Assembly (NCBI GenBank): GCA_964420885.1
Contig: CAYQVT010000001.1
Coordinates: 1,848-65,847 of the forward strand
Length of the DNA: 64,000 bases
DNA from: an uncultured Gammaproteobacteria bacterium
GTDB lineage: Bacteria > Pseudomonadota > Gammaproteobacteria > Arenicellales > Arenicellaceae
Direction: 5' to 3'
Of the stretch, positions 37,001 through 64,000 are shown in pieces (the first letter of the stretch is position 1; each line of letters begins with the position of its first letter). The translations under genes were made by a program, and so were the position numbers. The notes below the pieces were generated by a model that worked only from the letters and a program-made list of their open reading frames with translations, did no database searches and had not been told where the DNA came from.

Positions 37001-37600
37001 TCAGTAAAGCCAAGGTCGCAGTTGTTTATCTCTCTGTGCGAAACTGTCGATCAATGCTTGATGTCGTTGAGTCGCTGAGATTGGGTCTATGCCCTCAAGC
37101 AACGAAAGTTTGTCGTTGTTGGCAATATTGAACCAGTATGAAGTCTGGTCGCGCGTTATGGTTTGCGAGCAGAGGTCTACCGTGAGCTCTTTTATTTGGC
37201 TATTGCTCAGCTGCTGAATGTCCGCTTTTTCTAGTTTTATTGGCAGTATGCCATTTGCGATGCAATTGCTATAAAAGATGGCGCCGAAGCTTTCTGCAAT
37301 AATGCATCGAATGCCGAACTCTTTTAGGGCCCAAACTGCGTGTTCGCGTGATGAGCCACAGCCAAAGTTATCGCCACTGAGTAAAATGCTCGCGCCTTTA
37401 AAGCTCTGTGAATTGAGTACAAAGTCTGGGTTTAGCGTTCGTTTCGTGGCATCCGAATAGCGCCATGCGGCAAATAAGCCATCACTTAAACCGAGCTTTG
37501 ATACGGTTTTCATTTCGCGCGACGGAATGATGGAGTCGGTATCGATATTGTTTCGAATAAGTGGCGCTGCTATGCCTGTATGAGTGATAAACTTATCCAT
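37001..37600 (-). CDS. leuD: Isopropylmalate isomerase small-subunit paralogue (maleate-type hydratase candidate)
   Basis: NIDTDSIIP, NFGCGSSREHA and SFGAIFYSN motifs; start overlaps the large-subunit stop. Confidence 0.88.
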   Translation of the reverse strand: MDKFITHTGIAAPLIRNNIDTDSIIPSREMKTVSKLGLSDGLFAAWRYSDATKRTLNPDFVLNSQSFKGASILLSGDNFGCGSSREHAVWALKEFGIRCIIAESFGAIFYSNCIANGILPIKLEKADIQQLSNSQIKELTVDLCSQTITRDQTSYWFNIANNDKLSLLEGIDPISATQRHQALIDSFAQRDKQLRPWLY

Positions 37601-39005
37601 TATCGGCCCCTCGTATGTACCCAGCGCAAGCCGACGCGGCAACGGTAAGAGGGCTGGCGATATGTGTTTTGACCATAGGGCCTTGGCGGCCTTCGAAATT
37701 CCTATTGGTGCTGGAAATAATTCGTTTACCTACACCAAATGTTTCACCACCGGCGTAAAAACACATTGAACAGCCCGATTCGCGCCACTCAAATCCGGCG
37801 TCAATTAGCACTTTGTCGATTCCCTCTTTCTCAGCCGCACGTTTAACCGAGCGCGAGCCCGGCACACAAATTGCTGAAACACCCTCGGCAACCCGTTTGC
37901 CTTTTAAGTAGTTTGCAACTAGGCGGAGATCACTTAATCGGCTATTGGTACAAGAGCCGATAAAGGCGGCATCTACTTTAATTTGTTCAAAACGTTGGCC
38001 TGGCGCCACTTCCATGTAATCCTGAGCTTTTCGCATTGATTCGCGCCGGTCATTTGAGTAGTTGCTCGATTGATCAGGACAAGGGACAACATCATTCACA
38101 GCAATCGCGTCTTGTGGGCTGGTACCCCAGGTAACACTTGGCCTAATCTCAGTGCAATTTATACTCACTTCTTTGTCAAATTCAGCGTCGGGGTCCGAAT
38201 GCAGGTCTTTCCAATGTCTGATCGCGCTTTCCCAGTGCTCGTCTTTTGGCGCATACTCGCGGCCTTTAAGATATTCGAAGCAAATGTCATCGGGCGCTAT
38301 AAGACCGGTGAAGGCGGAGAATTCAACGGCCATGTTGCACAGCGTTAATCGTGCTTCCACTTCAAGTGCGCGTATGGCTGTGCCAGAAAATTCAACCGCA
38401 TGGCCTAAGCCACCGGTGGTACCCAGCTCAGCAATCAGGTGAATAATCATATCTTTGGCTGTTACGCCTGCGCGGAGCCTACCTTCAAAGTTTACGCGCA
38501 TGGTTTTAGGTTTATTAACCTTAAGCGTTTTGGTCGCTAAAGCGTGTTCTGTATCGGTCGACCCGATACCCCAAGCCAGTGCGCCTAGACCCCCTAATGT
38601 GCAGGTATGGCTATCGGGACACACAATAGTAATACCCGGTAAGGCGATTCCAAGTTCTGGCGACACCACATGCGCAATGCCTTGTTGAGGATGGTCTAAG
38701 TCAAATAAAGTGATGCCCGCGTTTTTTGCTGCGCGTCGAGTTGCCGAAATAAACTTTTCACCCCCCGGCATCTCGGTTTTATCAGTGCGGCCCGGTTTCG
38801 TGCTGACTATGTGATCCATGGTGCAAAATACGGTTTCAGGATGCAACACTTCTAGCTCGCTCTGTTCGAGGTTTAGCAGCGCGATACTGCCCGTGCGTTC
38901 ATGCAAGAATATTCTGTCTACATTAAGCAGATATTCATCATCGTCCAGATGCTTAATCTCATGTAGTTGCCAAAGTTTCTCGAAAAGTGTTAACGGCTTA
39001 GTCAC
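37593..39005 (-). CDS. leuC: Isopropylmalate isomerase large-subunit paralogue ([4Fe-4S] hydratase)
   Basis: HE, DH, DSHT, IGSCTNSR, GCSMC and STNRNFEGRQG motifs; no leuA/leuB nearby. Confidence 0.88.
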   Translation of the reverse strand: MTKPLTLFEKLWQLHEIKHLDDDEYLLNVDRIFLHERTGSIALLNLEQSELEVLHPETVFCTMDHIVSTKPGRTDKTEMPGGEKFISATRRAAKNAGITLFDLDHPQQGIAHVVSPELGIALPGITIVCPDSHTCTLGGLGALAWGIGSTDTEHALATKTLKVNKPKTMRVNFEGRLRAGVTAKDMIIHLIAELGTTGGLGHAVEFSGTAIRALEVEARLTLCNMAVEFSAFTGLIAPDDICFEYLKGREYAPKDEHWESAIRHWKDLHSDPDAEFDKEVSINCTEIRPSVTWGTSPQDAIAVNDVVPCPDQSSNYSNDRRESMRKAQDYMEVAPGQRFEQIKVDAAFIGSCTNSRLSDLRLVANYLKGKRVAEGVSAICVPGSRSVKRAAEKEGIDKVLIDAGFEWRESGCSMCFYAGGETFGVGKRIISSTNRNFEGRQGPMVKTHIASPLTVAASACAGYIRGADNG

Positions 39006-39042
39006 AAATTTTACTGAGGGTTTATTTGTATTATTGTAGTTT

Positions 39043-39068
39043 AATCATAAAGATATAACATTATAACA
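39043..39068. promoter_or_regulatory. 26-bp cluster operator, site 1
   Basis: Reverse strand reads TGTTATAATGTTATATCTTTATGATT, upstream of the leuC-like gene. Confidence 0.65.
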
Positions 39069-39143
39069 AATAAAGCAAAGAATGAGTACAACACACGGTC
39101 AGTGGTCTAGCGGCTGATAGTGAATTTTTTCGAGAAGGTTAAT

Positions 39144-39452
39144 TCACGACCAAACCTTGCCGCCAATCCATTTTCCGGCTGCTGGCATGAATGTAGAAAA
39201 TGAGTAACTACGATAGACTCCAGCTTTAACATATGGGTCGTTGTCGAATAATTGTTTTGCTTCTTCAACATCGTCGGTGTCGTAAATAAAGCAGCTACCG
39301 TCATAGTGTGCAGCTTGTAGTTGATTAATTGGGCCAGCTACTGCGAGCTTGTCTAAGATACCTTCGATATACCTAAAATGTGATTGTAAATGTTGTTTAC
39401 GAAGTCCTTGTGCATTATCGCCGTCGTGGCAGATTACGATGATAGCCATCAA
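39144..39452 (-). CDS. YciI family protein
   Basis: R..H...H..Y, AGP, GS and DPY..AGVY motifs. Confidence 0.85.
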   Translation of the reverse strand: MMAIIVICHDGDNAQGLRKQHLQSHFRYIEGILDKLAVAGPINQLQAAHYDGSCFIYDTDDVEEAKQLFDNDPYVKAGVYRSYSFSTFMPAAGKWIGGKVWS

Positions 39453-39592: not shown

Positions 39593-40495
39593 TTATTGAT
39601 AATTAGGATCTTTCCATTCGCCCACAGACCTCGATCGTACGGGTTGAAGTAGCTTCGGTTCTTCGGTATCAGGGTAACCTTCTCCCCAGTTTTGTGGGTC
39701 ACCGAACATTTCGACTCGTGCGTTATCTGTATACCAATCTACCAAGTCGCCATCACATCGTAATAAAAAAGTGGCGCCTTCTTCATCACCCGCCACAAAA
39801 TCACCGTGGCGAATGTGTGCGGGGCGAAAGAAGTAAGTTCCTGCATGTAAGCTGCCGTAGTTGTAATGGAAATCACCAGCTAAAGTATATGATTCTTCAA
39901 ATACTGGGTGGTGCGCTAGCGGATGTTCCTTCCAACCTGGCTTGGCTTTGATTAAGCGCGTATAGAAACCAGTAATAGGGTCTCGATACATAAGCTTAAT
40001 ATAGAGCCCTGGTACCGGCGTGCCGCCGCGTTCGAAGTTCATGGGACTGCCGTTATCGGGGTCGGTAACTTCGTACCAATCCATTTCGTTTGTATGAGCG
40101 ATGGTAAGTTCGTGCTCTTTAGCGGTCCCGGGTCGATCAGCCGAAGCAGGTTCGAATTTCCAGTCACCATATTCACGAAATAACAGCACTTCAGTGCCAG
40201 CCGTGACCATCATTGCCGGAGTGAGTATGCCTTTGGGCGCGCAGAAATAACTGCCTTCGGTAAGCACTTCGTCGCCTAGGCGAACTTCGCCCTTAAGTAC
40301 ATACCACTCAACCAGTGCTGCGTGAAGACCAGAGACTCGGGTCCAATCCGTTTTGAAAATTACTCGAGTCGACGCTGAACCGTCTTCTTCGTCATAACTT
40401 AAGTTTTGTTGTTCGGCTTCGCCTTGCCCTAGTGGTAGCTCAGCGATGTGCCAAATTAGATCATCTTGGTGGATGAACTCTACGTGTGGTCTCAT
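39593..40495 (-). CDS. Bicupin protein (DUF4437/ChrR-like), candidate dioxygenase
   Basis: Two cupin repeats: H...EWYVL.G and HHPVFEESY.L.G...YFFRPAHIRHG. Confidence 0.7.
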   Translation of the reverse strand: MRPHVEFIHQDDLIWHIAELPLGQGEAEQQNLSYDEEDGSASTRVIFKTDWTRVSGLHAALVEWYVLKGEVRLGDEVLTEGSYFCAPKGILTPAMMVTAGTEVLLFREYGDWKFEPASADRPGTAKEHELTIAHTNEMDWYEVTDPDNGSPMNFERGGTPVPGLYIKLMYRDPITGFYTRLIKAKPGWKEHPLAHHPVFEESYTLAGDFHYNYGSLHAGTYFFRPAHIRHGDFVAGDEEGATFLLRCDGDLVDWYTDNARVEMFGDPQNWGEGYPDTEEPKLLQPVRSRSVGEWKDPNYQ

Positions 40496-40587: not shown

Positions 40588-41571
40588 CTATGTTCCCCAC
40601 TTTCCGTCAATTGCTGACTGCACATTCTTCTCTATTTTTTTCATCGGTAATATCTCGCGCCCATTTTCTAGCAAGAAATCTAGAAACCTCTGGGCTACGG
40701 GGGATAATTTTTTATCTTTTAGATGCGTGACTTCCCATCGAGACATAAGAGGAAAGTCGTCAACGTTTAGTTGAGTTAGGCCGTCCATATCCGAGTTGCT
40801 TAAGATATAGGCAGACATTATGGATATGCCCATGTTTGCCATAACGGCATGCTTGATGGCTTCGTTGCTCTCGATGGTCATGACATCGTCCATCTTAAAG
40901 TTATTCTTTTTAAGATAGGCCTGTACTTTAATCATTTCGCCAGACCCAGCTTCGCGCATCAAAAAACGTTGTCCTTTAATATCATTCCAGCTTAAGTCTT
41001 TGCGACTTGCAAGGTCGTGATGTTTAGATGCAACTACGGCTATAGGATTGGGTAAAAATGGATGTGAATGAATATCCAAGTCGTTTGGTAATTCGCTGAA
41101 GAAATAAAGGTCGTCTTCATTGTTTTTCAATCGTTCGACGATCATGTCTCGATTGCCAACATGAAATTCGACTTCTACGCCAGGGTAGAGTTCGCAAAAT
41201 GGTGCAAGAATATAGGGCAAAAAATACTTTGCAGTGGTGACCACGGAAATGCTCAAGCTGCCCGACTGGAGACCTTTAAGGCTATTGATTGTGTCGTCTA
41301 AACGATTGACCGATTCAAAAATCTCTTTTCCTGTGTCTTCCACTTCACGGCCAGCTTCAGTCAGTTTTAATGTTTTACCTATTACCTCGTATAAGGGTAA
41401 GCCAACGGCTTCAGACAGCTTTTTAACTTGAACTGAGACGCTCGGTTGAGTCAAACATAGTGCTTCTGAAGCGCGTGCAATGCTACTTAACTCGGCCACC
41501 TTGAGAAATATTTCTATTTGTCGAAGCGTGCCAAGTTTAGATAAAAGCCGAAGGTCTAAAGGTTGTTCCAT
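40588..41571 (-). CDS. LysR regulator, CbbR/CmpR-like subfamily
   Basis: TLRQIEIF, TQPSVS, TTAKYF, REAGSG and SNEAIKHAVMANMGISI motifs. Confidence 0.9.
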   Translation of the reverse strand: MEQPLDLRLLSKLGTLRQIEIFLKVAELSSIARASEALCLTQPSVSVQVKKLSEAVGLPLYEVIGKTLKLTEAGREVEDTGKEIFESVNRLDDTINSLKGLQSGSLSISVVTTAKYFLPYILAPFCELYPGVEVEFHVGNRDMIVERLKNNEDDLYFFSELPNDLDIHSHPFLPNPIAVVASKHHDLASRKDLSWNDIKGQRFLMREAGSGEMIKVQAYLKKNNFKMDDVMTIESNEAIKHAVMANMGISIMSAYILSNSDMDGLTQLNVDDFPLMSRWEVTHLKDKKLSPVAQRFLDFLLENGREILPMKKIEKNVQSAIDGKWGT

Positions 41572-41586: not shown

Positions 41587-42333
41587 CTAGAACTCCGCAA
41601 GCAGTCGGCCGAAGCCAGACATTTTATCGTTAATTCCGCAGGCCCGCAGGGCGTGCCAATACGTCGCCGTATTAATCGCGATTACTGGTTTACCAAGCTC
41701 TTGTTCCATATCGGCGGCCAATTGCACCGCTGATAAATTTGTGCCGACCTGAATGATGGCGTCGACGTCATCACTGTTCATATCGAGAAATACTTGGCGG
41801 GTGGTTTCGTTTGTCACTTCTGCAATGGCTCTCCAACTTGGGCATTGTAAGCATTGATCAGCGACTGTTTCATAACCGTAATCACTGAAAAAATTAGCAA
41901 CTTCGGTATTGGCAACAGGGTAGTACGGAGACATAAAGGCTATTTTCTTTACGCCGCCATAGGCTTCTAACGCAGAGACTATGGATTCTGAACCAACTGA
42001 TATTTTGAGTCCCGATATGTCTTCGACTGGTTTCTTCCACTCAATACATCCTCGTGCACCATCATAAAAAGTGACCGCAGACATACCCATAACCAAATAG
42101 TCCGGTGCACAGGGCATTACATGACGTACCGCATCTAAGGTATTTTCTGAAATGATCTGCGTGCCCTTCATAAACGACTCGTTTGAGATCGCGTTCGCGT
42201 TCTCTACAAAGATGCGGCTATAGTGATTGCTTACACCTTGCGGCCGCATATCGTCGAACTCGGGTTGCACAATGGTGTTGGTGGCGGGGCCTAATACGCC
42301 GAATTTGGCTCGATAACCTAGAACGTCAGTCAT
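41587..42333 (-). CDS. Maleate isomerase / arylmalonate decarboxylase (Asp/Glu racemase) family protein
   Basis: GVLGPATNTIVQPEF, SPY, E.ELGKPVIAIN and GFGRLL motifs. Confidence 0.82.
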   Translation of the reverse strand: MTDVLGYRAKFGVLGPATNTIVQPEFDDMRPQGVSNHYSRIFVENANAISNESFMKGTQIISENTLDAVRHVMPCAPDYLVMGMSAVTFYDGARGCIEWKKPVEDISGLKISVGSESIVSALEAYGGVKKIAFMSPYYPVANTEVANFFSDYGYETVADQCLQCPSWRAIAEVTNETTRQVFLDMNSDDVDAIIQVGTNLSAVQLAADMEQELGKPVIAINTATYWHALRACGINDKMSGFGRLLAEF

Positions 42334-42380
42334 AATGATTTTGCGGTGTTGATACTAATGCACGTAGTTTTGGTAATATA

Positions 42381-42406
42381 TGATATATTATTATGTCATT
42401 ATATCA
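42381..42406. promoter_or_regulatory. 26-bp cluster operator, site 2
   Basis: TGATATATTATTATGTCATTATATCA in a divergent intergenic region. Confidence 0.6.
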
Positions 42407-42433
42407 AATAATCTTTATTTGGAGTTTTTATCC

Positions 42434-42739
42434 ATGAGTGCCTACATCGTCGTCGAAGCAATAATTACCGACTATCCTAAGTTTGCTCCCTATACAAAAG
42501 TTGTACCGCCCTTGGTTGCTAAAATGGGAGGCGAATACATCTCTATTGCCGGAGAAGCTCAGGCATTAGAAGGTGATTGGGGCGACACTAAAATAGTTTT
42601 ACACCGATGGCCAAGCATGCAAGCTGCAAGAGATTTTTGGTTTTCAGATGAGTATGAACAAGCAAAAAAATTGCGCGAAAATACAGGTACCTTTAGAGTA
42701 ATGTTAGTAGAGGGAGTAAAGAAAGAGGTCTTGGAGTGA
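42434..42739 (+). CDS. DUF1330 family protein
   Basis: MSAYIVV, GGEY, LEGDW and PS..AA..FWFS.EY..AK.LR pattern. Confidence 0.85.
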   Translation: MSAYIVVEAIITDYPKFAPYTKVVPPLVAKMGGEYISIAGEAQALEGDWGDTKIVLHRWPSMQAARDFWFSDEYEQAKKLRENTGTFRVMLVEGVKKEVLE

Positions 42740-42782: not shown

Positions 42783-43826
42783 ATGAGAATAGAACCCTAT
42801 CAAGCCCTTGGGCTGCAAGTGACTTGTCAAGCGGTAAACATTGCGCCATCAATTGAAGCTGCGCGTGAAAAAATGTTGCAAAGCATCAAGCATATCGACG
42901 GTCGCATTAAGGGCAGTATTGGTTTTGCTAACACTTTTAGTGGTGTGCCGGTTCGCTTGGTTGTACTGCCGGAGTATTTCTTGAGCAGTTTTCCGTTAAG
43001 CGAATCCATACCCGCGTGGATCGATAAAGCTTGTTTGCAAGTTGACGGGCCTGAATATGACGCCTTAAGTAAGGTCGCTCAGTCTAGTAAGATTTATCTT
43101 TCGGGAAATGCCTATGAAGTAGATCCGTATTTTCCCGAATTGTATTTTCAGACAAGTTTCATTATCAATGACTCTGGCGATGTGATCTTGCGGTATCGCC
43201 GCTTGGTATCCATGTATTCTCCGACGCCGCATGACGTCATGGATAAGTATTTAGAGAAACACGGTGATGATTCACTTTTTCCGGTTGTCGATACTGAGCT
43301 GGGCAAGCTAGCTTGCGTCGCGTCTGAGGAAATTCTTTACCCTGAAATTAGCCGTGCCTTAGCGCTAAATGGGGCCGAGGTTTTATGCCACTCTTCAAGT
43401 GAAGTGGGTAGCCCCCGAGCCACGCCAAAGAATATAGCTAAACAAGCGCGCGCTTATGAAAATATGGCCTATATTGTTTCAGCTAACAGCGCGGGTATCG
43501 AAGGCATTCCGTTCCCTGCGGCATCAACCGATGGCAGTTCTCAAGTTGTCGATTATAAGGGGCAAGTGATGGCTGAGGCAGACACAGGTGAGTCGATGGT
43601 TGGTATAGCAGAGCTCAATATTAATGCCTTGCGGCGCGCGCGCGCTAAGCCAGCTATGACCAATATGCTGGCAAGACAGCGTTTGGAATTGTTTGCTAAG
43701 GTTTATTCGCAACAATCGGTTTATCCGATGAATAATATGCTGCAAGGTAGTGATGTTGTGGTGCCCGATCGCTCGCACTTTATAAAATGTCAGAACACGG
43801 CAATTCGTGCTTTGAGTGAGAAATAG
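42783..43826 (+). CDS. Nitrilase / carbon-nitrogen hydrolase superfamily protein with atypical active site
   Basis: VVLPEY, FPVVDTELGKL, ARAYENMAYIVSAN and G.S.VVDYKG motifs. Confidence 0.85.
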   Translation: MRIEPYQALGLQVTCQAVNIAPSIEAAREKMLQSIKHIDGRIKGSIGFANTFSGVPVRLVVLPEYFLSSFPLSESIPAWIDKACLQVDGPEYDALSKVAQSSKIYLSGNAYEVDPYFPELYFQTSFIINDSGDVILRYRRLVSMYSPTPHDVMDKYLEKHGDDSLFPVVDTELGKLACVASEEILYPEISRALALNGAEVLCHSSSEVGSPRATPKNIAKQARAYENMAYIVSANSAGIEGIPFPAASTDGSSQVVDYKGQVMAEADTGESMVGIAELNINALRRARAKPAMTNMLARQRLELFAKVYSQQSVYPMNNMLQGSDVVVPDRSHFIKCQNTAIRALSEK

Positions 43827-43945
43827 CCGATCTTTTCATCGAACTGTTTGCAGCCAATATGTTTGATACGCCAAATTGCTTAGGTAGGCAGCTTTAAGAG
43901 TACCGCCAACCTTTGACACACCTATCTTCATTTATGAATTGTGAC

Positions 43946-44488: not shown

Positions 44489-44585
44489 ACGCGTTTGAAA
44501 AATTGCTGTTTTATCTGCCTAATGCCTCTTTAATTGCATGATGGGTTTGGTAAACGTTTTATATCCATCAAAGTTGGAGTTTGTT

Positions 44586-52799: not shown

Positions 52800-52823
52800 T
52801 ACCTGTCCTGCAATAAAATTGTG

Positions 52824-53594: not shown

Positions 53595-53731
53595 TTAATA
53601 CAATATGCAAATATCATTGGCCCTTTTACTATGCGCCAGTCTGATAATCTTGGTCAATGGCAGGTTTGGTTTCACTAATGCTTTGATCCTTTAATTGTTA
53701 CTAAATTCGCTTATTGCGACCCCGTTTTAGC

Positions 53732-56490: not shown

Positions 56491-58086
56491 ATGAGTTTAG
56501 AGATAGTCAGTAATAGTAACAAGAGTCTTATTGAACGACTCCAAGGCATCGTTGGTGAGGCCCATGTACTGACCGATGATGAATCGCGCAGACTTTACTC
56601 ACAAGATGTTTTTACTCGCGATATAGCTAGTTTAGCGGTTGTACAACCTGCTAATAAAGACGAGTTGGCTGCCGCTGTTAAGGCATCTACTGCAGCTGAC
56701 TGTGACGTGATTCCACGCGGTGGCGGCATGTCCTATACCAGTGGGTATGTTCCGCTAAATCATGATTCAGTGACCATGGATTTGAGTCGAATGAATCGCA
56801 TACTTGAAATCAATACTGATGACATGTACGTCACGGCTGAAGCTGGTTGTACATGGAAACAACTCTATGAGGCATTAGAGGGTACTGGCTACCGAACACC
56901 TTATTGGGGCACACTATCAGGTACCTACGCAACGATTGGTGGGGGCTTTTCTCAGAACTCGATTTTCTGGGGCTCTGGCCAATATGGGTCGGCAGCTGAC
57001 AGTGTTATAAGTCTAGAAGTCGTTATTGCGGATGGCTCGATTATAAAGACCGGCTCTGGCGCACAACTTAATAGTCAGCCGTTCTTTCGCCATTTTGGAC
57101 CCGATTTAACCGGTATTTTCACCTCTGATTGTGGAGCCTTGGGTTTTAAAGCGACCGCCACCATTCGATTAATAAAACAGTTTGACGGCAAGGCGTTTTG
57201 CGCTTATGACTTTAAGACGAGTGAAGATACGATTGCAGCGATGTCTGAAATTTCTCGCCAAGGTCTCGCAATGGAGTGCTTCGGCTTTGATCCGTTCTTG
57301 CAGTCGCAACGTTTAAAGCGCGAAAGTTTGAGTAAAGACGTAAAGGCATTGGCGGGCGTAATGAAAGCGTCTGGATCAATACTGGGTGCGTTAAAGGATG
57401 GTGCCAAGGTCGCACTTGCTGGGCGAAGATATATGGATGATGTGGACTTCTCGGTACAGCTAATGATCGAGAGTTACACCCAAAGTGGTGCGCAAGCCAA
57501 AGCAAGTAGAGTCTCAGAAATTGCGGCTAAATATAATGGCCGCGAAATTAGCAATAGTATTCCGAAAATCACCAGAGCGAATCCATTTGGCCCAGTGAAT
57601 GTAATGCTTGGCCCAGAGGGAGAACGCTGGGTGTGCACGCACGCGTTAGTGTCCCATTCAAACGCGGTGTCTAGTCATCAGGCGATTTTGGATGTGTTTG
57701 AAAAGTATCAAACTGAATTTGAAAAACATGGCGTTGAGACCGGCTTTTTATTTGCCATAATCTCAACCAATGCCTTCGTTTTAGAGCCGGTGTTTTTCTG
57801 GCAAGATGCGCCGACTGAAATACATGCCAGATACATAGAAACCGATCACTTTGCAACGCTACCAAAGTTTGAGGAAGACTTAGAGGGTCGCAAATTAGTC
57901 GCAAAAGTGCGACATGAACTGGCGGCAATGTTTAAAGATATAGGTGGAGTACATATGCAAATCGGCAAAGATTATCACTACTCAGATGGTATTGCGCCAG
58001 AATCACTAGCGCTAATAAAAGCCGTGAAATCATCGGTTGATCCGAATAATCGTATCAACCCTGGTGCACTGGGGTTAGGCGTATGA
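56491..58086 (+). CDS. FAD-binding oxidoreductase (VAO/PCMH, GlcD-like)
   Basis: PRGGGMSYTSGY, DLSRMNRI, ATIGG, GPDLTG and DPNNRINPG motifs. Confidence 0.88.
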   Translation: MSLEIVSNSNKSLIERLQGIVGEAHVLTDDESRRLYSQDVFTRDIASLAVVQPANKDELAAAVKASTAADCDVIPRGGGMSYTSGYVPLNHDSVTMDLSRMNRILEINTDDMYVTAEAGCTWKQLYEALEGTGYRTPYWGTLSGTYATIGGGFSQNSIFWGSGQYGSAADSVISLEVVIADGSIIKTGSGAQLNSQPFFRHFGPDLTGIFTSDCGALGFKATATIRLIKQFDGKAFCAYDFKTSEDTIAAMSEISRQGLAMECFGFDPFLQSQRLKRESLSKDVKALAGVMKASGSILGALKDGAKVALAGRRYMDDVDFSVQLMIESYTQSGAQAKASRVSEIAAKYNGREISNSIPKITRANPFGPVNVMLGPEGERWVCTHALVSHSNAVSSHQAILDVFEKYQTEFEKHGVETGFLFAIISTNAFVLEPVFFWQDAPTEIHARYIETDHFATLPKFEEDLEGRKLVAKVRHELAAMFKDIGGVHMQIGKDYHYSDGIAPESLALIKAVKSSVDPNNRINPGALGLGV

Positions 58087-58661
58087 ACCACACGGTTATG
58101 AGACTTGACCCTGCAAACATTGATGAGCTTGATGCTGATACCAAGGAAATACTTGCTAAAGGCGATGAGATCATGGGTTTTAGTTCGAATGACGCCTTGC
58201 TCATGGCTCACAAACCGGCCATGTTGAAAGCCACACTCGGCCTCGTGCAGTCTGTTTATCAAGAGGGTTGTGTACCTCTCGTTTTAAAAAAACTAGTCGC
58301 ATTAATGACGAGTAGTGCAGCGGGCTGTCAGTACTGCCAAGTGCATACGCAATATGGTGCGATTAATGAAGGTGTCGAAGCTAATAAGATTAGCGAGATT
58401 TGGAATTACTCCAGTAGTGATCTATTTAGTGATGCCGAACGTGCCGCCTTAGATGTTGCTCGAACCGCGGCTTTTAGTCCCAACGAAACCAGTGACCGAA
58501 GTTTCGATAGACTAAAAGAATTCTACTCTCCGGAACAAATCGTTGAGCTGGTCGGTGTGATTGCCTTGTTCGGTTTTCTCAATCGATGGAATTCTACGTT
58601 TAATACAACTTTAGAACAAACACCCAAAGCGGTCGTACAGGCCAGCGGATTAAAGAAATAA
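58083..58661 (+). CDS. AhpD/carboxymuconolactone decarboxylase family protein
   Basis: GCQYCQVH, ERAAL and FGFLNRWN motifs. Confidence 0.85.
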   Translation: MNHTVMRLDPANIDELDADTKEILAKGDEIMGFSSNDALLMAHKPAMLKATLGLVQSVYQEGCVPLVLKKLVALMTSSAAGCQYCQVHTQYGAINEGVEANKISEIWNYSSSDLFSDAERAALDVARTAAFSPNETSDRSFDRLKEFYSPEQIVELVGVIALFGFLNRWNSTFNTTLEQTPKAVVQASGLKK

Positions 58662-58670
58662 TGTAAAATT

Positions 58671-59672
58671 ATGACTGAGAACATTCAAATACAAGTAGCG
58701 TTTGTGCCCGACGGCGAACCTGATCTAGAGCATTTTCAATCTGTTGCTACACCGATGCCAGTCGCTGGCGATGGCCAAATTTTATGCGCCACTCAATATC
58801 TTTCACTGGACCCTTATATGCGCAGTCAATTAGCGGGTATGCATATGTCCGGCACGGTAAGTAAGGGCGACTTAATGCGTGGTGAAACCGTTAGTAAGGT
58901 GATCGAATCTAATCACGACGATTTTACTGAAGGCGATATCGTTCGCTGTTTCGGTAACTGGCAGCAATACTCGGTGCATGAAGCCAAGGAACTCAGGATT
59001 CAGCGTAAAGACATTCAGCCCCCTTCTTACGGACTGTCTGTATTGGGTATGCCAGGCTTGACCGCCTACGCTGGCCTTATGTGGATCGCCAAGCCAAAAA
59101 AAAACGACGTGGTACTTATTCCAGCTGCAACGGGGGCCGTGGGGTCAACAGCAGGTCAGCTTGCCAAGATAGAAGGCTGCCGCGTGATCGGTATCGCAGG
59201 CTCAGATGAAAAGTGTCGTTACGCTGTTGAAGAACTCGGATATGACGCATGCATTAATCGTAAAACTGAAGACCTGAGTGAACGTCTAGACAAACTTTGC
59301 CCACAAGGCGTTGACGTATACTTCGATCTTGTCGGCGGTGAAACCTTAAATACAGTGTGCACAAAATTAGCGATGCATGCCCGTGTAATTCTGTGTGGAT
59401 TAATGGAAGACTATAACAAACCAAGCCGTTCCCATGGCCCCAAGCCAGGCCCAATCATCGGTGCAAGAGCCTCACTGCATGGCTTAGTCGTATACGATTG
59501 GGAGCCTCGCCGAGAGGAGTTTACCGACGCATGCCTAAACTATATTTCTCAGGGACGGCTAAGCATGCGAGAGGATATGGGCTATGGCATCAATGCTGCT
59601 CCTGACGTATTTTGCAAACTAATGCGTGGTGAAAATCAAGGCAAGGCCATCGTCAAAATAGCCGTTGATTAG
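58671..59672 (+). CDS. NADP-dependent alkenal/ene reductase (CurA/PTGR family)
   Basis: YLSLDPYMR, LGMPGLTAY, AATGAVG and GIAGSDEK motifs. Confidence 0.9.
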   Translation: MTENIQIQVAFVPDGEPDLEHFQSVATPMPVAGDGQILCATQYLSLDPYMRSQLAGMHMSGTVSKGDLMRGETVSKVIESNHDDFTEGDIVRCFGNWQQYSVHEAKELRIQRKDIQPPSYGLSVLGMPGLTAYAGLMWIAKPKKNDVVLIPAATGAVGSTAGQLAKIEGCRVIGIAGSDEKCRYAVEELGYDACINRKTEDLSERLDKLCPQGVDVYFDLVGGETLNTVCTKLAMHARVILCGLMEDYNKPSRSHGPKPGPIIGARASLHGLVVYDWEPRREEFTDACLNYISQGRLSMREDMGYGINAAPDVFCKLMRGENQGKAIVKIAVD

Positions 59673-59729: not shown

Positions 59730-60398
59730 TTAGCCAGTCCAAGGTTTGACGATGCCAAGATACGCTTCAACAATCAGCACTAGCCATATTGTTAACACCC
59801 AAGGCCTTACACGATTTAGACTCGCCTTCATGAGTTGATTGTCTTCGTCCGTATAACTATCTTGGATGATTTTTGCGTAGGTTGCGCTGAAGTCTTTTAT
59901 TTTGATTCGTATCATCAACCCGCAAAAAACCAAGAAGGCAAAGCCAACTAGTTTCGCGATAATCCAGGGTTGATCAGTCAAGCGGTCGATGGAATAAGCA
60001 TAAGCGCAGGATAGCAAGATTGAGGCAATAACAACCCACCGAAAGTAGAAATCCAATTTTGTTAATAGTGGAATGTAAGTTGCGTCGTGTTTATAGTGGA
60101 GAATTAACACCATGCTCAGCCAAAGCGGGCCAATCAAAATTATGAGTAACATTTGCCAGCTTGCGTGTTCTACTCCAACATAGTGTGACAACAAGCCACC
60201 GATGGTAAGCATTAAACTCATGCAAATGCGTGGCACCAGATCGCAGCCGAGCATGATCTTGGCTGCGACTAAACGGCTCTCCGAAGACAGCGAAGAATCG
60301 ACCACAAAGCCACTGGAATAAAACACACCCAGATCACCGCCCAACCAATAGACAAAAAGTAAAATGTGAATCAGTAAGAGAAGTTCGTAGGCACCCAT
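59730..60398 (-). CDS. Uncharacterised membrane protein, paralogue of 50194-50871
   Basis: LIHILLFVYWLGGDLGVF, D.VPR and W..AKL motifs; C-terminal G..KP. Confidence 0.75.
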   Translation of the reverse strand: MGAYELLLLIHILLFVYWLGGDLGVFYSSGFVVDSSLSSESRLVAAKIMLGCDLVPRICMSLMLTIGGLLSHYVGVEHASWQMLLIILIGPLWLSMVLILHYKHDATYIPLLTKLDFYFRWVVIASILLSCAYAYSIDRLTDQPWIIAKLVGFAFLVFCGLMIRIKIKDFSATYAKIIQDSYTDEDNQLMKASLNRVRPWVLTIWLVLIVEAYLGIVKPWTG

Positions 60399-60407: not shown

Positions 60408-61859
60408 CTACTTATAGGAAGTGAATGTTCGGTACTTGCCTAATGCGAGTAAAGGGATCGACCCTACTACGAGCAATATGCCTGCGGTAGTCAACGCCGT
60501 ACTCCAACTGCCTGTCGTCGCAACATCGGCCATGATCTTGGGCCCGAAGCCAGCCCCTAAGGCAAAGAAAGCATAGAGAAAGCCGTAAATCGCTGAGTAG
60601 CTGCGCATACCAAAATACTTGGTAACTAAATACGCTAGAAAGTCATATTCTACGCCGGCACCGAAGCCGATCATCAATATGGCGATGCGCGCTGATTGAG
60701 GCGTTAGTTCGGGCGACGCCAATAAGTAGAACGCAATTGCTGGCGATGCTAAAAAAATGAAGGCCACACCAGGGGCCCAAAATTTATCGATTAAAAAGCC
60801 TCCAATCAAACGTCCGCCTAAAACTGCCAGGCCTGTTAAGCCCGCGAGGGCTACCGCATCGGCAATGTCGAAGCCTTGTGCGCTTAAAATTTGTTCAAGA
60901 TTCGGGATAATAGCCCCTAGAGAATAAGAAATAGGTACGATGCAAATACACAATAGCCATAGGCGCCATTCTTTGAATGATTGTTTAAGAGTCAAGCCTG
61001 GTAGGCGTTCGCCTGCTTGTAGCTTGTAGCGAACGATTGGCTCTGTGCCTATTTTTCCAAACATGAAACCCAAGACTGGTAAAGCGGTGATGATCAGGAA
61101 TGGAAATACAATGGCGTATTCAAGTCGTAGACCGTTTTTAGCGATTTGCGGCAATATAAACTGCAAATTTAGCCAGACAAGAGCCGTGAAGCCAGTTAAG
61201 GCTGGCAACATGATTAAAAGTTTGAACTTGGTTAATACTGAATCCCGTGCTGGTGTGTCATCGACGTCTCTAATACCAAGTAACGCGATCGGGAAGGCAA
61301 TCAATATAGGTAGCAAACCCAAGGCGATATAGGCGGTGCGCCAATCGTATAAAGTTACAATTTCTTGGGCAAAATATTTTGCCAATGTGCCGAACATGCC
61401 TGTGGCAATCAATGCAATACCCAGCGCTTTACCTCGGTGCTTTTCAAAGGCGTTATTGACTGCACGAGTGAACGTTACTGGTAAGGTGCCCGCACCAAAA
61501 ATCGAGATTAAACCCCAAAGAAATAAGTAAAGAGCTTTGTCGCCGGTATGCAGCGATTGGGCCATCATGGCGAATCCAAAAAGAATAATTGACACCAGCG
61601 ATACCAAGCGTGCGCCAAACTTGTCGGCTAAGCTGCCGATCAGCGGCGCCATAAAAAAGGCAGTAATCGTATAAATAGGGAACGCTAAAAACACATCGCC
61701 TAATCCCCAATTGAACTCTTGCATAATTGGGCCTGCCATGACGCCTAAGGTATAAAATGGCAGTGGCGACATACCGAGCCCAATTCCCACTGCTGAGGCC
61801 GACATTACTGGCCAACCGCTGGCGAATTCGTTTTGCCCAGATGCTGTGTTATCACTCAT
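60408..61859 (-). CDS. MFS transporter (OFA-like) with an extra hydrophobic insertion
   Basis: GSLADKFGAR, RGKALGIAL and YFGMRSYSAIYG motifs. Confidence 0.88.
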   Translation of the reverse strand: MSDNTASGQNEFASGWPVMSASAVGIGLGMSPLPFYTLGVMAGPIMQEFNWGLGDVFLAFPIYTITAFFMAPLIGSLADKFGARLVSLVSIILFGFAMMAQSLHTGDKALYLFLWGLISIFGAGTLPVTFTRAVNNAFEKHRGKALGIALIATGMFGTLAKYFAQEIVTLYDWRTAYIALGLLPILIAFPIALLGIRDVDDTPARDSVLTKFKLLIMLPALTGFTALVWLNLQFILPQIAKNGLRLEYAIVFPFLIITALPVLGFMFGKIGTEPIVRYKLQAGERLPGLTLKQSFKEWRLWLLCICIVPISYSLGAIIPNLEQILSAQGFDIADAVALAGLTGLAVLGGRLIGGFLIDKFWAPGVAFIFLASPAIAFYLLASPELTPQSARIAILMIGFGAGVEYDFLAYLVTKYFGMRSYSAIYGFLYAFFALGAGFGPKIMADVATTGSWSTALTTAGILLVVGSIPLLALGKYRTFTSYK

Positions 61860-61892: not shown

Positions 61893-62816
61893 TTAGTACG
61901 GCCAAGACTTAGGCAGACCTGCTTCGGGAGTGAAGCCATACAACGGTTCATTTGGCAATGCTCGTTGTATCAAGTTTCGTACTTCTATTAGTTTGTTTAA
62001 ATCGATGCCAGTGTTTAAGCCCATTGATTCGAGCATGAATACCAGGTCTTCAGTGACGATATTACCGCTTGCTCCGGGTGCCCAGGGGCAGCCGCCAATT
62101 CCGCCAAGCGAGCTATCTAAGGTTGTCATGCCCAGTTCGACAGCCATCAATGCATTAGCGAGGCCTTGACCACGAGTATTATGTAAGTGCACGCCATTTA
62201 ATGATTCGCGACCACAATGTTGCCAAATGCTTTGGCTTAAGCGTTTTAATTGGGCCGGGTTGCCTACTCCTGTCGTGTCCGATAAGCCAACTTCATCGAC
62301 GCCGAGTTCGATAAGCGATTCGGCCATTCTAACGACAGTGCTTTCTTCAACTTTTCCTTCAATGGTACAGCCGAAGGCAGTTGACAAGCCAACTTCGAGG
62401 CTTGGACGATTGTCACTCTCAAGTTGTTGAATATGGGCAACGCATTTTCGTATTTCCTCTAACATTTGCGGGTGAGTCTTGTTGACGTTTTTAACTGAAT
62501 GCGTCTCGCTCATCGAGAAGGGAATTGATATTTTGTCCGCACCATTTTCTACCGCCGCTTTAACTCCGTGTAAATTTGGAGCGAGTACGGCAACCGTTAG
62601 GCCATTTATTGATGCGGCATATCGTGTAATTTCAGCCGTATCCGCGAGTTGTGGGAGCAGTCTTGCAGGTACAAATGAGCCCACTTCAATCTCGCTGGTT
62701 CCCGCTTGATACTGAGATTTTATCCATCTTTTTTTCGCCTCGGTGGGCATGATTTTCGTAATGCTTTGTAAGCCATCTCTTGGGCCAACTTCGCTAATTT
62801 GGATATCTATGGTCAT
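61893..62816 (-). CDS. HMG-CoA lyase family acyl-CoA lyase, second paralogue
   Basis: EVGPRDGLQS, DTTG, HLHNTRG and GGCPWAPGASGN motifs. Confidence 0.9.
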   Translation of the reverse strand: MTIDIQISEVGPRDGLQSITKIMPTEAKKRWIKSQYQAGTSEIEVGSFVPARLLPQLADTAEITRYAASINGLTVAVLAPNLHGVKAAVENGADKISIPFSMSETHSVKNVNKTHPQMLEEIRKCVAHIQQLESDNRPSLEVGLSTAFGCTIEGKVEESTVVRMAESLIELGVDEVGLSDTTGVGNPAQLKRLSQSIWQHCGRESLNGVHLHNTRGQGLANALMAVELGMTTLDSSLGGIGGCPWAPGASGNIVTEDLVFMLESMGLNTGIDLNKLIEVRNLIQRALPNEPLYGFTPEAGLPKSWPY

Positions 62817-62874
62817 TTAATTTACTGCTAGCGGTTGTAGCTTCTGGTCTATTAAGTTTTAGTTTGGCTTTAAA

Positions 62875-63025
62875 TGTTATATTGTTATATCATAATAACA
62901 TATGTTTTGATGATCGCTACTGTTTTAGGCATTTTGATCGACAAAATAGCTTGAATATTAGCCGTTTAGGGTCGAATTTAGGATTCAGGCTTGCTTAAAT
63001 GTATTATTGATATATCATAATAACA
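62875..63025. promoter_or_regulatory. 26-bp cluster operators, sites 7 and 8
   Basis: TGTTATATTGTTATATCATAATAACA (62875) and TGTATTATTGATATATCATAATAACA (63000). Confidence 0.7.
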
Positions 63026-63087
63026 ATAGGTTATGTTTGGCGCATGATCTTTATTAGCGGCTTTTACGTGAATTGCAGGAGCCTGAA

Positions 63088-64000
63088 TTGACTTTAAATT
63101 ATGGAAAGACTGCTGTGCATCAAAACGACTTACCCCTATCAGGCATAAAAGTTATTGAATTTACCCATATGGTTATGGGCCCCGCTGCTGGCGTGATTTT
63201 GGCTGATTTGGGTGCAGAAGTGATTAAGGTTGAACCGATTAACGGCGATAACACTCGACGTCTGAAGGGGTCTGGTGCAGGCTACTTTCCGATGTACAAC
63301 CGCAACAAGAAAAGCATTAGTGTCGATGTTAAATCGAGCGACGGCCTAAAAATTGTCAAGCGGCTAATAGAATCTGCCGATGTCTTGATTGAAAATTTCC
63401 GCCCAGGCGCAATGGCTAAGCTCGGACTTGGCTATGATGATTTGAGTGAGGCTAACCCTCGATTGGTATATTGCTCCTTGAAAGGTTTTCTTTCTGGCCC
63501 ATATCAACATCGCACTGCTCTGGATGAGGTCGTGCAAATGATGGGAGGCTTGGCGTACATGACCGGTTTGCCTGATCGTCCGATGCGCGCTGGTTCATCA
63601 GTGATCGATATCGCTGGAGGCATGTTCGGCGTGATTGGAATTTTGTCGGCGATAGAGAAGCGGCACGTCACTGGAAAGGGTGAATTGGTATCTAGCTCAC
63701 TATTTGAAACTACCGCGTTTATGGTTGGCCAGCACATGGCTCAAGAGGCGGTTTCAGGCGAAGCGCCTTTACCGATGTCGGTACGGCAATCCGCTTGGTC
63801 GGTCTACGATATCTTTGAGTGTAATGATGACGAAAAAGTCTTTGTTGGCGTTGTCAGTGATGCCCTATGGAAACTATTTTGCAGTGAGTTTGAACTTACT
63901 GGGTTTCAGCAAGACCGTTCACTTGATAGCAATAATCAACGAGTAGAACAGCGTGAGCGTATTTTGCCTGTAGTAAAAAAGTTATTTAGGAGTATGTCCG
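63088..64000 (+). CDS. Family III CoA transferase (CaiB/BaiF), second paralogue, truncated by the window end
   Basis: Not in the ORF track; manual translation gives LPLSGIKVIEFTHMVMGP, LADLGAEVIKVEP, NRNKKS and ENFRPG. TTG 63088 follows AGGAG; alternative GTG at 63115. Confidence 0.9.
   Translation, partial: MTLNYGKTAVHQNDLPLSGIKVIEFTHMVMGPAAGVILADLGAEVIKVEPINGDNTRRLKGSGAGYFPMYNRNKKSISVDVKSSDGLKIVKRLIESADVLIENFRPGAMAKLGLGYDDLSEANPRLVYCSLKGFLSGPYQHRTALDEVVQMMGGLAYMTGLPDRPMRAGSSVIDIAGGMFGVIGILSAIEKRHVTGKGELVSSSLFETTAFMVGQHMAQEAVSGEAPLPMSVRQSAWSVYDIFECNDDEKVFVGVVSDALWKLFCSEFELTGFQQDRSLDSNNQRVEQRERILPVVKKLFRSMS

Follow-up and report, generated by a model that had tools for sequence, protein, structure and literature searches.

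A probable tetrapyrrole (bile-pigment) breakdown island of a marine bacterium, with a predicted substrate

The window, a 64,000-nucleotide stretch of DNA from an uncultured gammaproteobacterium, carries in its second part (Table 1) one half of a gene island of about 55 kb whose two halves stand under one operator motif and which is kept in many water-dwelling bacteria. The original prediction had described a catabolic cluster of more than 27 kb; the cluster is real, but its true length is about double, its far end lying about 27 kb outside the window at offset ~91,470 (contig C1 ~93,320). Every gene that had been listed is present, with Pfam or profile matches and assigned coordinates. The proposed absence of leuA and leuB beside leuCD is borne out, another LeuC/LeuD pair (43-46% identical to the island pair) lying elsewhere in this 87.6% complete genome, on contigs C234/C248.

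Table 1. Genes and operator sites of the island (window positions unless stated; training, site used to train the operator matrix)
Feature	Position	Strand	Remarks
LeuCD-type hydratase, large and small subunit	37001-39005	-	PRK12466 676 bits (cut-off 531); TIGR00170 532 (cut-off 560)
LeuD small subunit	37001-37642	-	
LeuC large subunit	37593-39005	-	
Operator, 5' of leuC	39051-39070	-	21.8 bits, training
YciI-like protein	39144-39452	-	PF03795
DUF4437 bicupin	39593-40495	-	PF14499, E 9e-35
LysR regulator	40588-41571	-	PF03466/PF00126
AMDase/maleate-isomerase-fold protein	41587-42333	-	PF17645; no catalytic cysteines (PDB alignment)
DUF1330	42380-42739	+	
Operator, isomerase-fold gene/DUF1330 gap	42381-42400	-	21.1 bits, training
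Nitrilase-family amidase NitA	42783-43826	+	Ser at usual Cys position (ASEE)
Exported VOC protein	43913-44488	+	no match in 80 loci
Metallo-beta-lactamase-fold protein	44538-45449	+	no match in 80 loci
Alpha/beta-fold protein	45501-46331	-	no nucleophilic Ser
MCT-like MFS	46377-47597	-	
DHA2-type MFS	47604-49055	-	only 3 matches in 80 loci, ~30%
Operator, 5' of MFS-MFS-hydrolase unit	49108-49127	+	25.7 bits, training
HutC-type GntR/UTRA repressor	49164-49982	-	PF00392+PF07702
Membrane protein TMa (TMb paralogue)	50194-50871	+	no Pfam; Atlas matches 'hypothetical' only
Core ICa + CE4a + CE4b	50944-53486	-	intact in 80/80 loci
CE4b	50944-51882	-	conserved Glu replaced by Gln
CE4a	51879-52799	-	best PDB match PuuE 3cl6, E 6e-27
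NicF-like amidase ICa, isochorismatase family	52824-53486	-	best PDB matches 4l07/3ot4
Operator, core/caiB1 divergent promoter	53577-53596	-	23.3 bits, training
CaiB1 CoA transferase	53714-54931	+	
HMGL1	54931-55863	+	
Amidase ICb, isochorismatase family	55854-56444	+	
VAO/PCMH-family FAD oxidoreductase	56491-58086	+	
AhpD/CMD	58083-58661	+	
CurA-like ene-reductase	58671-59672	+	
Membrane protein TMb	59730-60398	-	
MCT-like MFS	60408-61859	-	
HMGL2	61893-62816	-	
Two operators, HMGL2/CaiB2 divergent promoter	62873-63017 (62873, 62998)	+	26.2, 23.2 bits, training
CaiB2 CoA-transferase	63073-64311	+	end read on contig
Island continuation	C1 65,848-93,320		loci L001, L002
CpcT-family-related exported protein	offset 66939-67916		profile

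The amidase-CE4-CE4 core is intact in all of the 80 related loci that form the comparison set for the core and its neighbours, and all 80 ICa proteins carry the motif GGSTSGC. The top PDB matches of ICa are 4l07/4l08 and 3ot4/3uao, which we take to be the maleamate amidases of the nicotine and nicotinate pathways. Two PuuE-like CE4 hydrolases had been proposed and both genes are there, but because Gln replaces a conserved Glu in the second, CE4b may be a non-catalytic partner and not a second enzyme. PuuE allantoinase, the nearest solved relative (3cl6), shares the CE4 fold and opens a cyclic amide; unlike PuuE (TIGR03212, cut-off 424.6 bits), the island CE4 proteins score just 125 and 110 bits, their genes are tandem and overlapping, one lacks the Glu, and no purine genes lie nearby. 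From sequence, the core is likely to be an imide hydrolase with a half-amidase.

The shared operator is real, with a consensus of about AATGTTATATTGTTATATCA. Its seven window sites (those of Table 1 and 50095) score by construction, since the same regions trained the matrix; the independent test is that sites of at least 12 bits lie upstream of the ICa gene in 41/80 related loci, compared with 10/2433 off-island upstream regions of this genome. The top two of these off-island sites lie in front of genes for a TonB receptor paralogue and for CpeT, and unseeded sites occur past the window at offsets 68430, 76876, 81770, 85563 and 90579, so that the same operator marks both island halves and an unlinked CpcT-like gene. 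In genomes G413 and G415 the window-trained motif also stands before leuC, caiB/hmgL and ICa, and in G444 it lies 54 bp upstream of the gene for an RCC reductase (RCCR) homologue (21.7 bits); it precedes RCCR in Alkalimonas; overall it stands before only 4 of 39 RCCR genes, and a search of the G445 island returned no site. The HutC-type repressor, encoded near the core in 35/80 loci, probably binds this operator, judging from the sites upstream of its own gene (50003/50095) and of its orthologues in G413, G415 and G444.

Beyond the window the island encodes five VOC proteins, a lipoprotein-like amidohydrolase, an ALDH, a second ene-reductase, an MFS transporter, a DUF1330 protein, three alpha/beta folds with GxHxG, a cytochrome c, a TonB receptor, a lipoprotein nitrilase, two Tat flavin amine oxidases (a third is broken) and four DUF1838 proteins, one of them fused to CpeT (offset 86655-88106). 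Two CpcT-like genes, of the bilin-lyase fold, lie in this part. Like the T-type phycobiliprotein lyases CpcT/CpeT, two regulon proteins pass the Pfam cut-off of PF06206, and profile comparison links a third one to the family (probability 97%); unlike those lyases, the island proteins are predicted to be exported, are two-domain or DUF1838-fused, belong to a heterotroph's catabolic island and lack a direct phmmer match to solved lyases, the CpeT-domain fusion finding none in the PDB. A DUF1838 model fits the CpeS lyase (Z 8.0, rmsd 3.8, 140 aligned) only as well as it fits unrelated barrels, which tells against a specific kinship. DUF1838 occurs in 6 of 400 sampled genomes, all of them among the ten that have a CE4a gene, and lies within 43 kb of CE4a in four of the six.

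Examination of gene neighbourhoods for bilin-related genes, suggested at the outset, was positive: CpcT-like genes were found in this very island, and RCCR homologues lie within 10 kb of the core in 8/80 loci, a Rieske oxygenase doing so in 15/80. The cluster RCCR matches Arabidopsis RCCR in the PDB (E 3e-9). RCCR homologues are encoded by 23 of 50 core-bearing genomes, in 2-5 copies each, and by 0/400 genomes of a phylum sample; CpeT is found in 19/50 and in 3/10, compared with 0/150 core-free genomes, counts that overstate significance because the 50 are mostly related marine Gammaproteobacteria. The two are nearly mutually exclusive (both in only 3 genomes, one in 39/50, neither in 11/50), and the neighbour families fall into two modules that follow this split: DUF1330 and NitA associate with CpeT-type genomes, and the LysR regulator accompanies the cupin gene in RCCR-type loci. 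Reciprocally, at least one island orthologue (at least 36% identity) was present in 9/10 RCCR metagenome loci of at least 10 kb. The sister islands with Rieske oxygenase, RCCR-like protein and hydrolases resemble the phyllobilin pathway of plants (PAO/RCCR) and its homologues in prokaryotes, although RCCR is missing from the island studied here. RCCR homologues are reported from heterotrophic Pseudomonadota in a preprint in which Shewanella acanthi is reported to convert Chl a; the hits in that preprint lie in about 11 kb, and its account stops at pFCC, without mention of genes further down, maleimides, an operator or a CpcT/DUF1838 module (bioRxiv 10.64898/2026.03.19.712979).

Gene content, operator, conservation and linkage to RCCR-like and CpcT-like genes are plain features of the island; its likely function in tetrapyrrole breakdown, and the substrate, are predicted. 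We consider it rather probable that tetrapyrroles are catabolised via substituted maleimides and that this island is of the CpcT/DUF1838 type. Against this count the 11/50 core-bearing genomes that have neither marker and the absence of RCCR from all ten CE4a-positive genomes of the random phylum sample. Opened tetrapyrroles (bilins or mono-/dipyrrole fragments) would be imported, trimmed to 2,3-disubstituted maleimides and mineralised via maleamate, dialkylmaleate and dialkylmalate, with a 2-oxo acid, acyl-CoA and ammonia as products, and the conserved core fits this order, lending support to the original prediction from maleimide onwards. No published account was found of such a route from pigment through a small nitrogen ring to combustion. 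Hematinic acid, methyl-ethyl-maleimide and methyl-vinyl-maleimide are among the named heme or chlorophyll breakdown products (PMC7318184). Two upper modules would supply the common core, RCCR/Rieske probably with chlorophyll catabolites and CpcT/DUF1838, the one present here, probably with phycobilins or biliverdin.

Ranked from firm to weak, the inferred steps are imide opening, hydration, CaiB/HMGL cleavage, periplasmic capture and bridge-carbon removal. CE4a would open the imide, possibly with CE4b as partner, and ICa and ICb would release ammonia. The LeuCD-type enzyme, encoded near the core in 25/80 loci, is a likely dialkylmaleate hydratase by sequence. Each CaiB/HMGL pair may then activate and cleave one ring type, hematinic acid giving pyruvate and glutaryl-CoA, and the methyl-ethyl ring pyruvate and butyryl-CoA or 2-oxobutyrate and propionyl-CoA. 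Some relatives have glutarate-handling genes near the core, and there a PrpB-like lyase, a glutarate CoA-transferase and glutaryl-CoA dehydrogenase may replace CaiB/HMGL: a PrpB/ICL-family lyase occurs in 17/80 loci, glutaryl-CoA dehydrogenase (PDB E 2.5e-190) adjoins LeuCD in 4/80, and a minimal plasmid cluster combines the core, LeuCD, the PrpB-like lyase, glutaryl-CoA dehydrogenase (70%), a succinate-glutarate CoA-transferase-like gene and ETF. Its predicted C3 and C5 products add up to the C8 of hematinic acid, just as a methylisocitrate-lyase-like enzyme with glutaryl-CoA dehydrogenase fits conversion of hematinic acid to pyruvate and glutarate. Neither the PrpB-like lyase gene nor that of the dehydrogenase is in the present island, the latter being on contig C106. 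Pigment capture and oxidation would be periplasmic tasks of the TonB receptor, the CpcT-like and DUF1838 barrels, cytochrome c and the Tat flavin oxidases; most speculatively, the VAO-type flavoenzyme, ALDH, Ser-type nitrilase and Ser-less alpha/beta folds might remove bridge carbons.

DmdAB, the 2,3-dimethylmaleate hydratase of Eubacterium barkeri, works with the lyase Dml; further related systems are HbzIJ and the pairing of a CaiB-type CoA-transferase with an HMGL-family (R)-citramalyl-CoA lyase. In common with all of these, the island would first hydrate a substituted maleate with a LeuCD-type enzyme and then break a C-C bond, and its related loci share with DmdAB/Dml a PrpB/ICL-family lyase. 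It differs from them in its link to imide hydrolysis, its two CaiB/HMGL pairs and the glutarate handling of its relatives.

The ring-opening step of this genome is unaccounted for, because searches detected neither RCCR nor a haem oxygenase or ferredoxin-dependent bilin reductase, and its only Rieske match is distant (29%). This favours an account that we nevertheless judge unlikely, in which the core consumes tetrapyrrole-derived maleimides made extracellularly by light or reactive oxygen, and the TonB/DUF1838/CpcT-like/amine-oxidase half handles another nitrogen compound (amine or alkaloid) and shares only the regulator. Minimal clusters without a nearby upper module (L153, G079) and the failure to find CpeT in any of three core-bearing congeners agree with it, as does the pairing of cytochrome c and Tat flavin amine oxidases, which usually acts on amines. 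Against it, the shared operator is found in front of both the periplasmic genes and the unlinked CpeT gene, DUF1838 was confined to CE4a-bearing genomes in the sample (6/6), and the CpcT and RCCR modules substitute for each other like parallel entries to one pathway.

Less likely still is degradation of alkyl- or carboxyalkyl-pyridines or another N-heterocycle via maleamate, as in the nicotinate/nicotine branch NicX-NicD-NicF-NicE. The island shares with that branch an isochorismatase-family amidase with the Cys motif, whose best PDB matches point the same way, and an isomerase-fold gene and alpha/beta folds reminiscent of the NicE and NicD families. However, no gene of the peptidase-M29 family, presumably that of NicX, was detected in the genome, and the island and 57 scanned neighbour families contain no molybdenum hydroxylase; the predicted maleate-isomerase fold exists but lacks the family's catalytic cysteines, and the alpha/beta folds are without a nucleophilic Ser. 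In the island, hydration by LeuCD and cleavage are the likely fate of the acid, instead of isomerisation, and pyridines leave unexplained both the CE4 pair that always accompanies the amidase and the RCCR/CpcT linkage. Another natural cyclic imide, lactam or anhydride (an algal or fungal secondary metabolite), with RCCR-like and CpcT-like proteins recruited to non-tetrapyrrole chemistry, is the most improbable source: oxoprolinase A/B genes in 7-9/80 loci, the modest match to plant RCCR and the predicted status of both family functions speak for it, but two unrelated tetrapyrrole-specific families (FDBR/RCCR fold and T-type bilin lyase) independently joined the core, and glutarate and pyruvate end products agree with a propionate-bearing pyrrole.

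The metallo-beta-lactamase-fold gene and the DHA2-type MFS may be passengers, given their scarcity in the 80 loci (Table 1), and possibly the exported VOC gene too. The isomerase-fold gene is present in the whole islands of G413, G444, G445 and G347. The window half also holds genes that had first been passed over, namely the HutC-type GntR, the LysR, the nitrilase-family gene, the alpha/beta fold, the VOC gene and two unknown membrane proteins, of which TMa recurs in 20/80 loci.

The catabolic cluster, which the original prediction had put at more than 27 kb, is a gene island of 55 kb. Pfam and profile annotation of the window (G000:C1:1848-65847, G000 being this genome and C1 its contig CAYQVT010000001.1) found every predicted gene in its place; only the extent had been understated, as the island runs past the window edge to an offset of about 91,470 (offsets continue the window numbering beyond its end). 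Its GC content is similar to that of the rest of the genome, which is 87.6% complete. The core of the island, an isochorismatase-family amidase (ICa) followed by two CE4 hydrolases (CE4a and CE4b), is unbroken in order in all 80 related loci, and whole islands of about 45-75 kb occur in Microbulbifer, Pseudohongiella, Alkalimonas, a Cellvibrionaceae genome and one genome of another class; the genes accordingly make up a genuine unit, shuffled and widespread. Within 10 kb of the core, many of the 80 loci being incomplete, there are genes for a GntR regulator (35), LeuC and LeuD (25), the lyase-like HMGL1 (20), the membrane protein TMa (20), the CoA transferase CaiB2 (18) and its partner HMGL2 (15), the nitrilase-family NitA (14), the FAD enzyme (13) and DUF1838 (12). 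Other neighbours are PrpB/ICL-family lyases (17), Rieske oxygenases (15) and, in 10 of the 80 loci, a beta-lactamase-fold protein whose chlorophyllase match is below the cut-off; neighbour 'families' without a Pfam match (4, 18, 19, 34-36, 38-40 and similar), which include shadow frames, were left out.

Among the nearest relatives of CE4a are those in Arenicella MAGs (83-89%). CE4a is present in 10 of 400 evenly sampled genomes of the phylum, two of which (G206 and G338) hold it in an unrelated context with no adjoining amidase match and hence do not carry this cluster; this context check left out the G246 region, and the G264 stretch ends before its core. Matching stretches in GTDB are estimated at about 910. 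No RNA sequencing run is among the listed carriers of the island. The one DNA run there is an algae metagenome from which this assembly may itself derive, and it is thus not independent support. The compact island on the mobilisable plasmid pJE1 resides in a cultured, tractable carrier, Sphingomonas sp. JE1.

The active sites of the core are conserved to different degrees. ICa has the isochorismatase fold (PF00857) and, in all 80 sequences, the cysteine motif GGSTSGC, while the second amidase, ICb, shows GL[TS]TSGC in 13 matches from 14 loci; fold and motif agree with those of NicF-type maleamate amidases, the putative activity of both. The best PDB matches of ICa are 4l07/4l08, followed at lower scores by 3ot4/3uao, all named just isochorismatase-family in the PDB listing; we take them to be maleamate amidases, although the identity of 4L07 was not confirmed in a literature search. 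The prediction of two PuuE-like CE4 hydrolases holds for CE4a, in which NIEF, SHG and THN are kept in the consensus of 80 sequences and the motif-1 glutamate and two histidines are present, but less so for CE4b, which has a glutamine at the glutamate position (consensus of 78) and is the more diverged (median 64% vs 77%). It is therefore plausible from these residues that CE4a and CE4b form a single two-subunit imidase. Several accessory proteins lack expected catalytic residues: NitA has a serine where a cysteine is expected, and the alpha/beta folds of the island are devoid of a nucleophilic serine. The FAD enzyme is a distant member of the VAO/PCMH family.

Three known systems resemble parts of the island, which fails membership of each yet works like parts of them. 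The canonical nicotinate pathway was rejected; the maleate-isomerase-fold protein does have the predicted fold but not its catalytic cysteines, the position of AMDase Cys188 aligning to VGTNL and position 74 to a methionine. A PF02073 search for the 2,5-dihydroxypyridine dioxygenase NicX, presumably M29-like, matched nothing in this one genome (87.6% complete), the control matching in 4 of 14. Leucine biosynthesis was rejected as well: the LeuC score is below the cut-off (TIGR00170, 531.6 < 560.25), the neighbours are YciI and an acyltransferase with no leuA/leuB context, and a separate LeuCD pair, 43-46% identical to that of the island, is encoded on C234/C248. The island pair thus stands outside leucine biosynthesis, and family and context suggest, as had been proposed, a substituted-maleate hydratase of the DmdAB/HbzIJ type. 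Both HMGL copies exceed the PRK05692 cut-off of 246 bits (302 and 274 bits); they are considered paralogues because another HMG-CoA lyase copy on C142, beside enoyl-CoA hydratase and carboxylase-like genes, is likely the leucine-pathway enzyme. Purine (allantoin) catabolism is dismissed by the PuuE allantoinase model TIGR03212, which gives 124.8 and 110.3 bits against a cut-off of 424.6.

The carbon skeleton can be approached through the smallest clusters. A PDB match (E 2.5e-190) identifies the dehydrogenase that adjoins LeuCD in 4 of the 80 loci as a glutaryl-CoA dehydrogenase. This enzyme (70%) is also encoded in a minimal plasmid cluster of Burkholderia plantarii, together with the core, GntR, LeuCD, ETF, a PrpB-like lyase (277 bits, cut-off 354) and a succinate-glutarate CoA-transferase-like gene (542 bits, cut-off 750). 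Pyruvate plus glutarate would add up to C8, the skeleton of hematinic acid once its imide is opened, deamidated and hydrated. That there are two amidases and two CaiB/HMGL pairs is consistent with two kinds of ring. Genes that would be appropriate to the saturated ring of chlorins or phycobilins are found in other islands, namely those for a third CE4, an acyl-CoA dehydrogenase, an Ich-like hydratase and a CitE-like lyase. An excerpt of PMC7318184 describes hematinic acid and methyl-ethyl and methyl-vinyl maleimides as heme or chlorophyll products, and reports maleimides and hematinic acid in senescent leaves and lake sediments. We consider it likely, in keeping with the original prediction, that the island mineralises tetrapyrrole-derived rings through substituted maleimides.

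Two families of the bilin-related genes to be sought in homologous clusters are indeed found there, the RCC reductase (RCCR) family in 8 of the 80 loci and the T-type bilin lyase family CpcT/CpeT in 3. The neighbour reductase matches Arabidopsis RCCR structures in the PDB (E 3e-9), and RCCRs are treated as an outgroup of the bilin reductases in an excerpt of PMC10151467. In whole-genome searches for 50 of the 80 loci, chosen mainly for length, RCCR-like genes occur in 23 genomes and CpeT in 19 (both in 3, either in 39, neither in 11), co-occurrence counts that are uncorrected for kinship, kin not being independent, and hence indicative only. PF06405 matched nothing in 401 genomes nor in controls, and the RCCR counts therefore come from an alignment-based search. 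For comparison, the phylum background is 0 of 400 genomes for RCCR, including the 10 CE4a-positive ones; CpeT is found in 0 of 150 core-free vs 3 of 10 CE4a-positive genomes, and DUF1838 in 6 of 400, all CE4a-positive and three from one family. RCCR is accompanied by a Rieske oxygenase, a double nitrilase, one uncharacterised family, an aldehyde dehydrogenase (ALDH) and mostly an ICL lyase, and CpeT by DUF1838, NitA, another ALDH, the FAD enzyme, TMa and an amine oxidase; in Alkalimonas the two modules lie side by side. The near-exclusive distribution of these two upper modules is a second contribution of this work, albeit indicative only. In the reciprocal test, 9 of 10 RCCR metagenome loci of at least 10 kb (of 39 loci) hold an island orthologue, and in only two of them are core genes within reach. 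Two results speak against a tight coupling. CpeT was found in none of three core-bearing congeners, and searches of this genome, at its 87.6% completeness, turned up neither RCCR nor haem oxygenase nor a bilin reductase, the RCCR alignment being the one that matches 23 of the 50 other genomes. The Rieske match of this genome reaches only 29%.

The first contribution here concerns regulation: one operator unites the core with the CpcT/DUF1838 half and, among relatives, with RCCR as a single regulon. The operator is a 20-base motif, about AATGTTATATTGTTATATCA, whose matrix was built from seven intergenic stretches in the window. Eight unseeded places in the genome score at least 15.5 bits; four fall within the island extension, one lies upstream of paralogous TonB and hydrolase genes on C390, where operator sites are strong, one upstream of the CpeT gene that stands apart on C2, and for two (C167, C77) no connection to the island is apparent. 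The C167 site could be due to chance or a link to a pigment-ester hydrolase. Off-island upstream regions of this genome reach at least 15 bits in 3 of 2433 cases and at least 12 bits in 10 of 2433; upstream of ICa in relatives, at least 12 bits are reached in 41 of 80, and 52 of 80 regions score better than all 20 shuffles. In 400 kb from five genomes 32 of the 35 matches of at least 12.5 bits stand just upstream of island-set genes, the remaining three upstream of one unlabelled island ORF. The Alkalimonas genome has a 21.7-bit site 54 bp in front of RCCR, between it and the Rieske gene; across RCCR genes a site is directly upstream in only 4 of 39, and the matrix scan found none in the island of G445, another relative. 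The island contains a gene for a HutC/UTRA-type GntR, and the conserved operator precedes both this gene and its targets; the regulator is the likely binder because sites stand upstream of its own gene.

One of the four DUF1838 genes in the CpcT/DUF1838 half is fused to a CpeT domain (PF06206, 62.7 bits, E 5e-17, cut-off 21). DUF1838 is predicted with confidence to be a beta-barrel, its alignment-based model having a pLDDT of 92.6 vs 36.7 for a single-sequence fold. The structural matches of this model are BFA1 (Z 8.6), CpeS (8.0), a designed barrel (8.0), nitrobindin (7.2) and CpeT (6.1), so that the CpeS lyase and nitrobindin tie with unrelated barrels; Foldseek gave no convincing match (TM to query <0.3), and an Atlas search returned only DUF1838 or 'hypothetical' clusters. 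A resemblance of TMa and its paralogue TMb to HemJ (UPF0093), noticed by eye, was discarded as too weak (hhalign probability 8%, 29 columns, template of two sequences).

Overall, this is a real, conserved and co-regulated catabolic island, apparently unpublished: the open-access literature yielded no description of the cluster, or of a bacterial pathway below the pFCC or bilin level. Its own entry substrate may be a phycobilin or biliverdin-type pigment, a reading that falls a little short of even chances and is less secure than that of the maleimides. Equally tentative is a complete bacterial tetrapyrrole mineralisation, in which a shared imidase-amidase-hydratase-lyase core would be fed by two interchangeable upper modules, RCCR and Rieske oxygenase delivering chlorophyll catabolites, and exported CpcT/DUF1838 barrels with Tat flavoenzymes delivering phycobilins or biliverdin. 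The CpcT-like proteins would run the cyanobacterial lyase reaction in reverse, freeing bilins from phycobiliprotein peptides, and DUF1838 would be a bilin-binding family. If true, pigment carbon and nitrogen would have a marine sink in the island, which would also assign functions to DUF1838, DUF4437 and heterotrophic CpcT-like and RCCR-like proteins, and would provide marker genes with which to follow the recycling of pigments in algal blooms. What is new is the pathway in its entirety, provided that the substrate is confirmed; each single enzyme comes from a known family.

Chlorophyll turnover is about 10^9 tonnes a year according to the preprint 'Chlorophyll a degradation in Prokaryotes' (10.64898/2026.03.19.712979), in which RCCR homologues are rare in heterotrophs and Shewanella acanthi converts chlorophyll. 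That work stops at pFCC, with no downstream genes in its main text; the routes that we found described end at ring opening or reduction, and the consumer of the pyrrole rings is the question that the island would address. It provides genes that can be tested in cultured marine bacteria, and hematinic acid, methyl-ethyl-maleimide, biliverdin and phycocyanobilin are substrates within reach. Microbulbifer agarilyticus, Halioglobus japonicus and Parahaliea maris are carriers of the RCCR type in culture, Exilibacterium tricleocarpae and Pseudocolwellia agarivorans of the CpcT type. RCCR matched in none of 93 Shewanella genomes and in no plasmids, and S. acanthi is not named among the best 120 of 274 RCCR homologues, most rows being without an organism name.

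Features of the island, its relatives and the surrounding genome (C, contigs of this genome unless a relative is named; L, fetched loci)
Feature	Position	Remarks
CaiB2, end	offset 64311	past the window edge
Island extension	offset 64311 to ~91,470	VOC proteins, amidohydrolase, aldehyde dehydrogenase, second ene-reductase, MFS, three alpha/beta folds, DUF1330, cytochrome c, TonB receptor, two Tat-type flavin amine oxidases, second nitrilase, four DUF1838 genes
Exported CpeT-family-related protein	offset 66939-67916	profile comparison, probability 97%
Third flavin amine oxidase	L001 ~15370-16170, offset 77520-78320	fragment, 65% to island-type relatives; apparently broken
Stand-alone exported CpeT-domain gene	C2:78760-79804	PF06206 38.7 bits; 19-bit operator site; downstream of dnaG- and rpoD-like genes
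Operator-like site	C167:6834	18 bits; precedes gene run including lipase-like gene
Second copies on short contigs	C285:3-1414, C98:11230-12521, C415:218-2045, C390:1-2479	CaiB1 (92%), HMGL1 (70-77%), ICb (76%), VOC-amidohydrolase-CpcT-like pieces (47-76%), TonB/alpha-beta fold
Oxoprolinase A/B pair	C29:1850-5794	unlinked to island; same family inside 7-9 of 80 related loci
Alginate-utilisation-like locus	window 435-14972	TonB receptor, cupin, PfkB kinase, FadR-type GntR; MFS- and SDR-like ORFs seen by eye
Alginate lyase/heparinase II-III	window 3741-5972	in alginate-like locus
Chondroitinase-B-fold lyase	window 8778-11120	in alginate-like locus
TonB receptor, ABC ATPase-like ORF, two DUF3526/ABC-2 permeases	window 18532-24718	small His-rich gene upstream
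Compact island, Sphingomonas sp. JE1 plasmid pJE1	L155, 1-25938	two LeuCD pairs, CaiB2/HMGL2, ICL lyase, FAD enzyme, cupin
Alkalimonas island	G444:C88:47000-110000 (L145-L148)	three RCCR paralogues, Rieske oxygenase, double nitrilase adjoining CpeT/DUF1838 module; saturated-ring module (CE4c, ACAD, MaoC, CitE)

Among the islands inspected, that of Alkalimonas is the most complete. The copies on short contigs represent either a second partial island or contamination of the bin. Elsewhere in the window, the TonB receptor and ABC-type genes at 18532-24718 resemble a metal-uptake unit, and the alginate-utilisation-like locus fits an alga-associated lifestyle.
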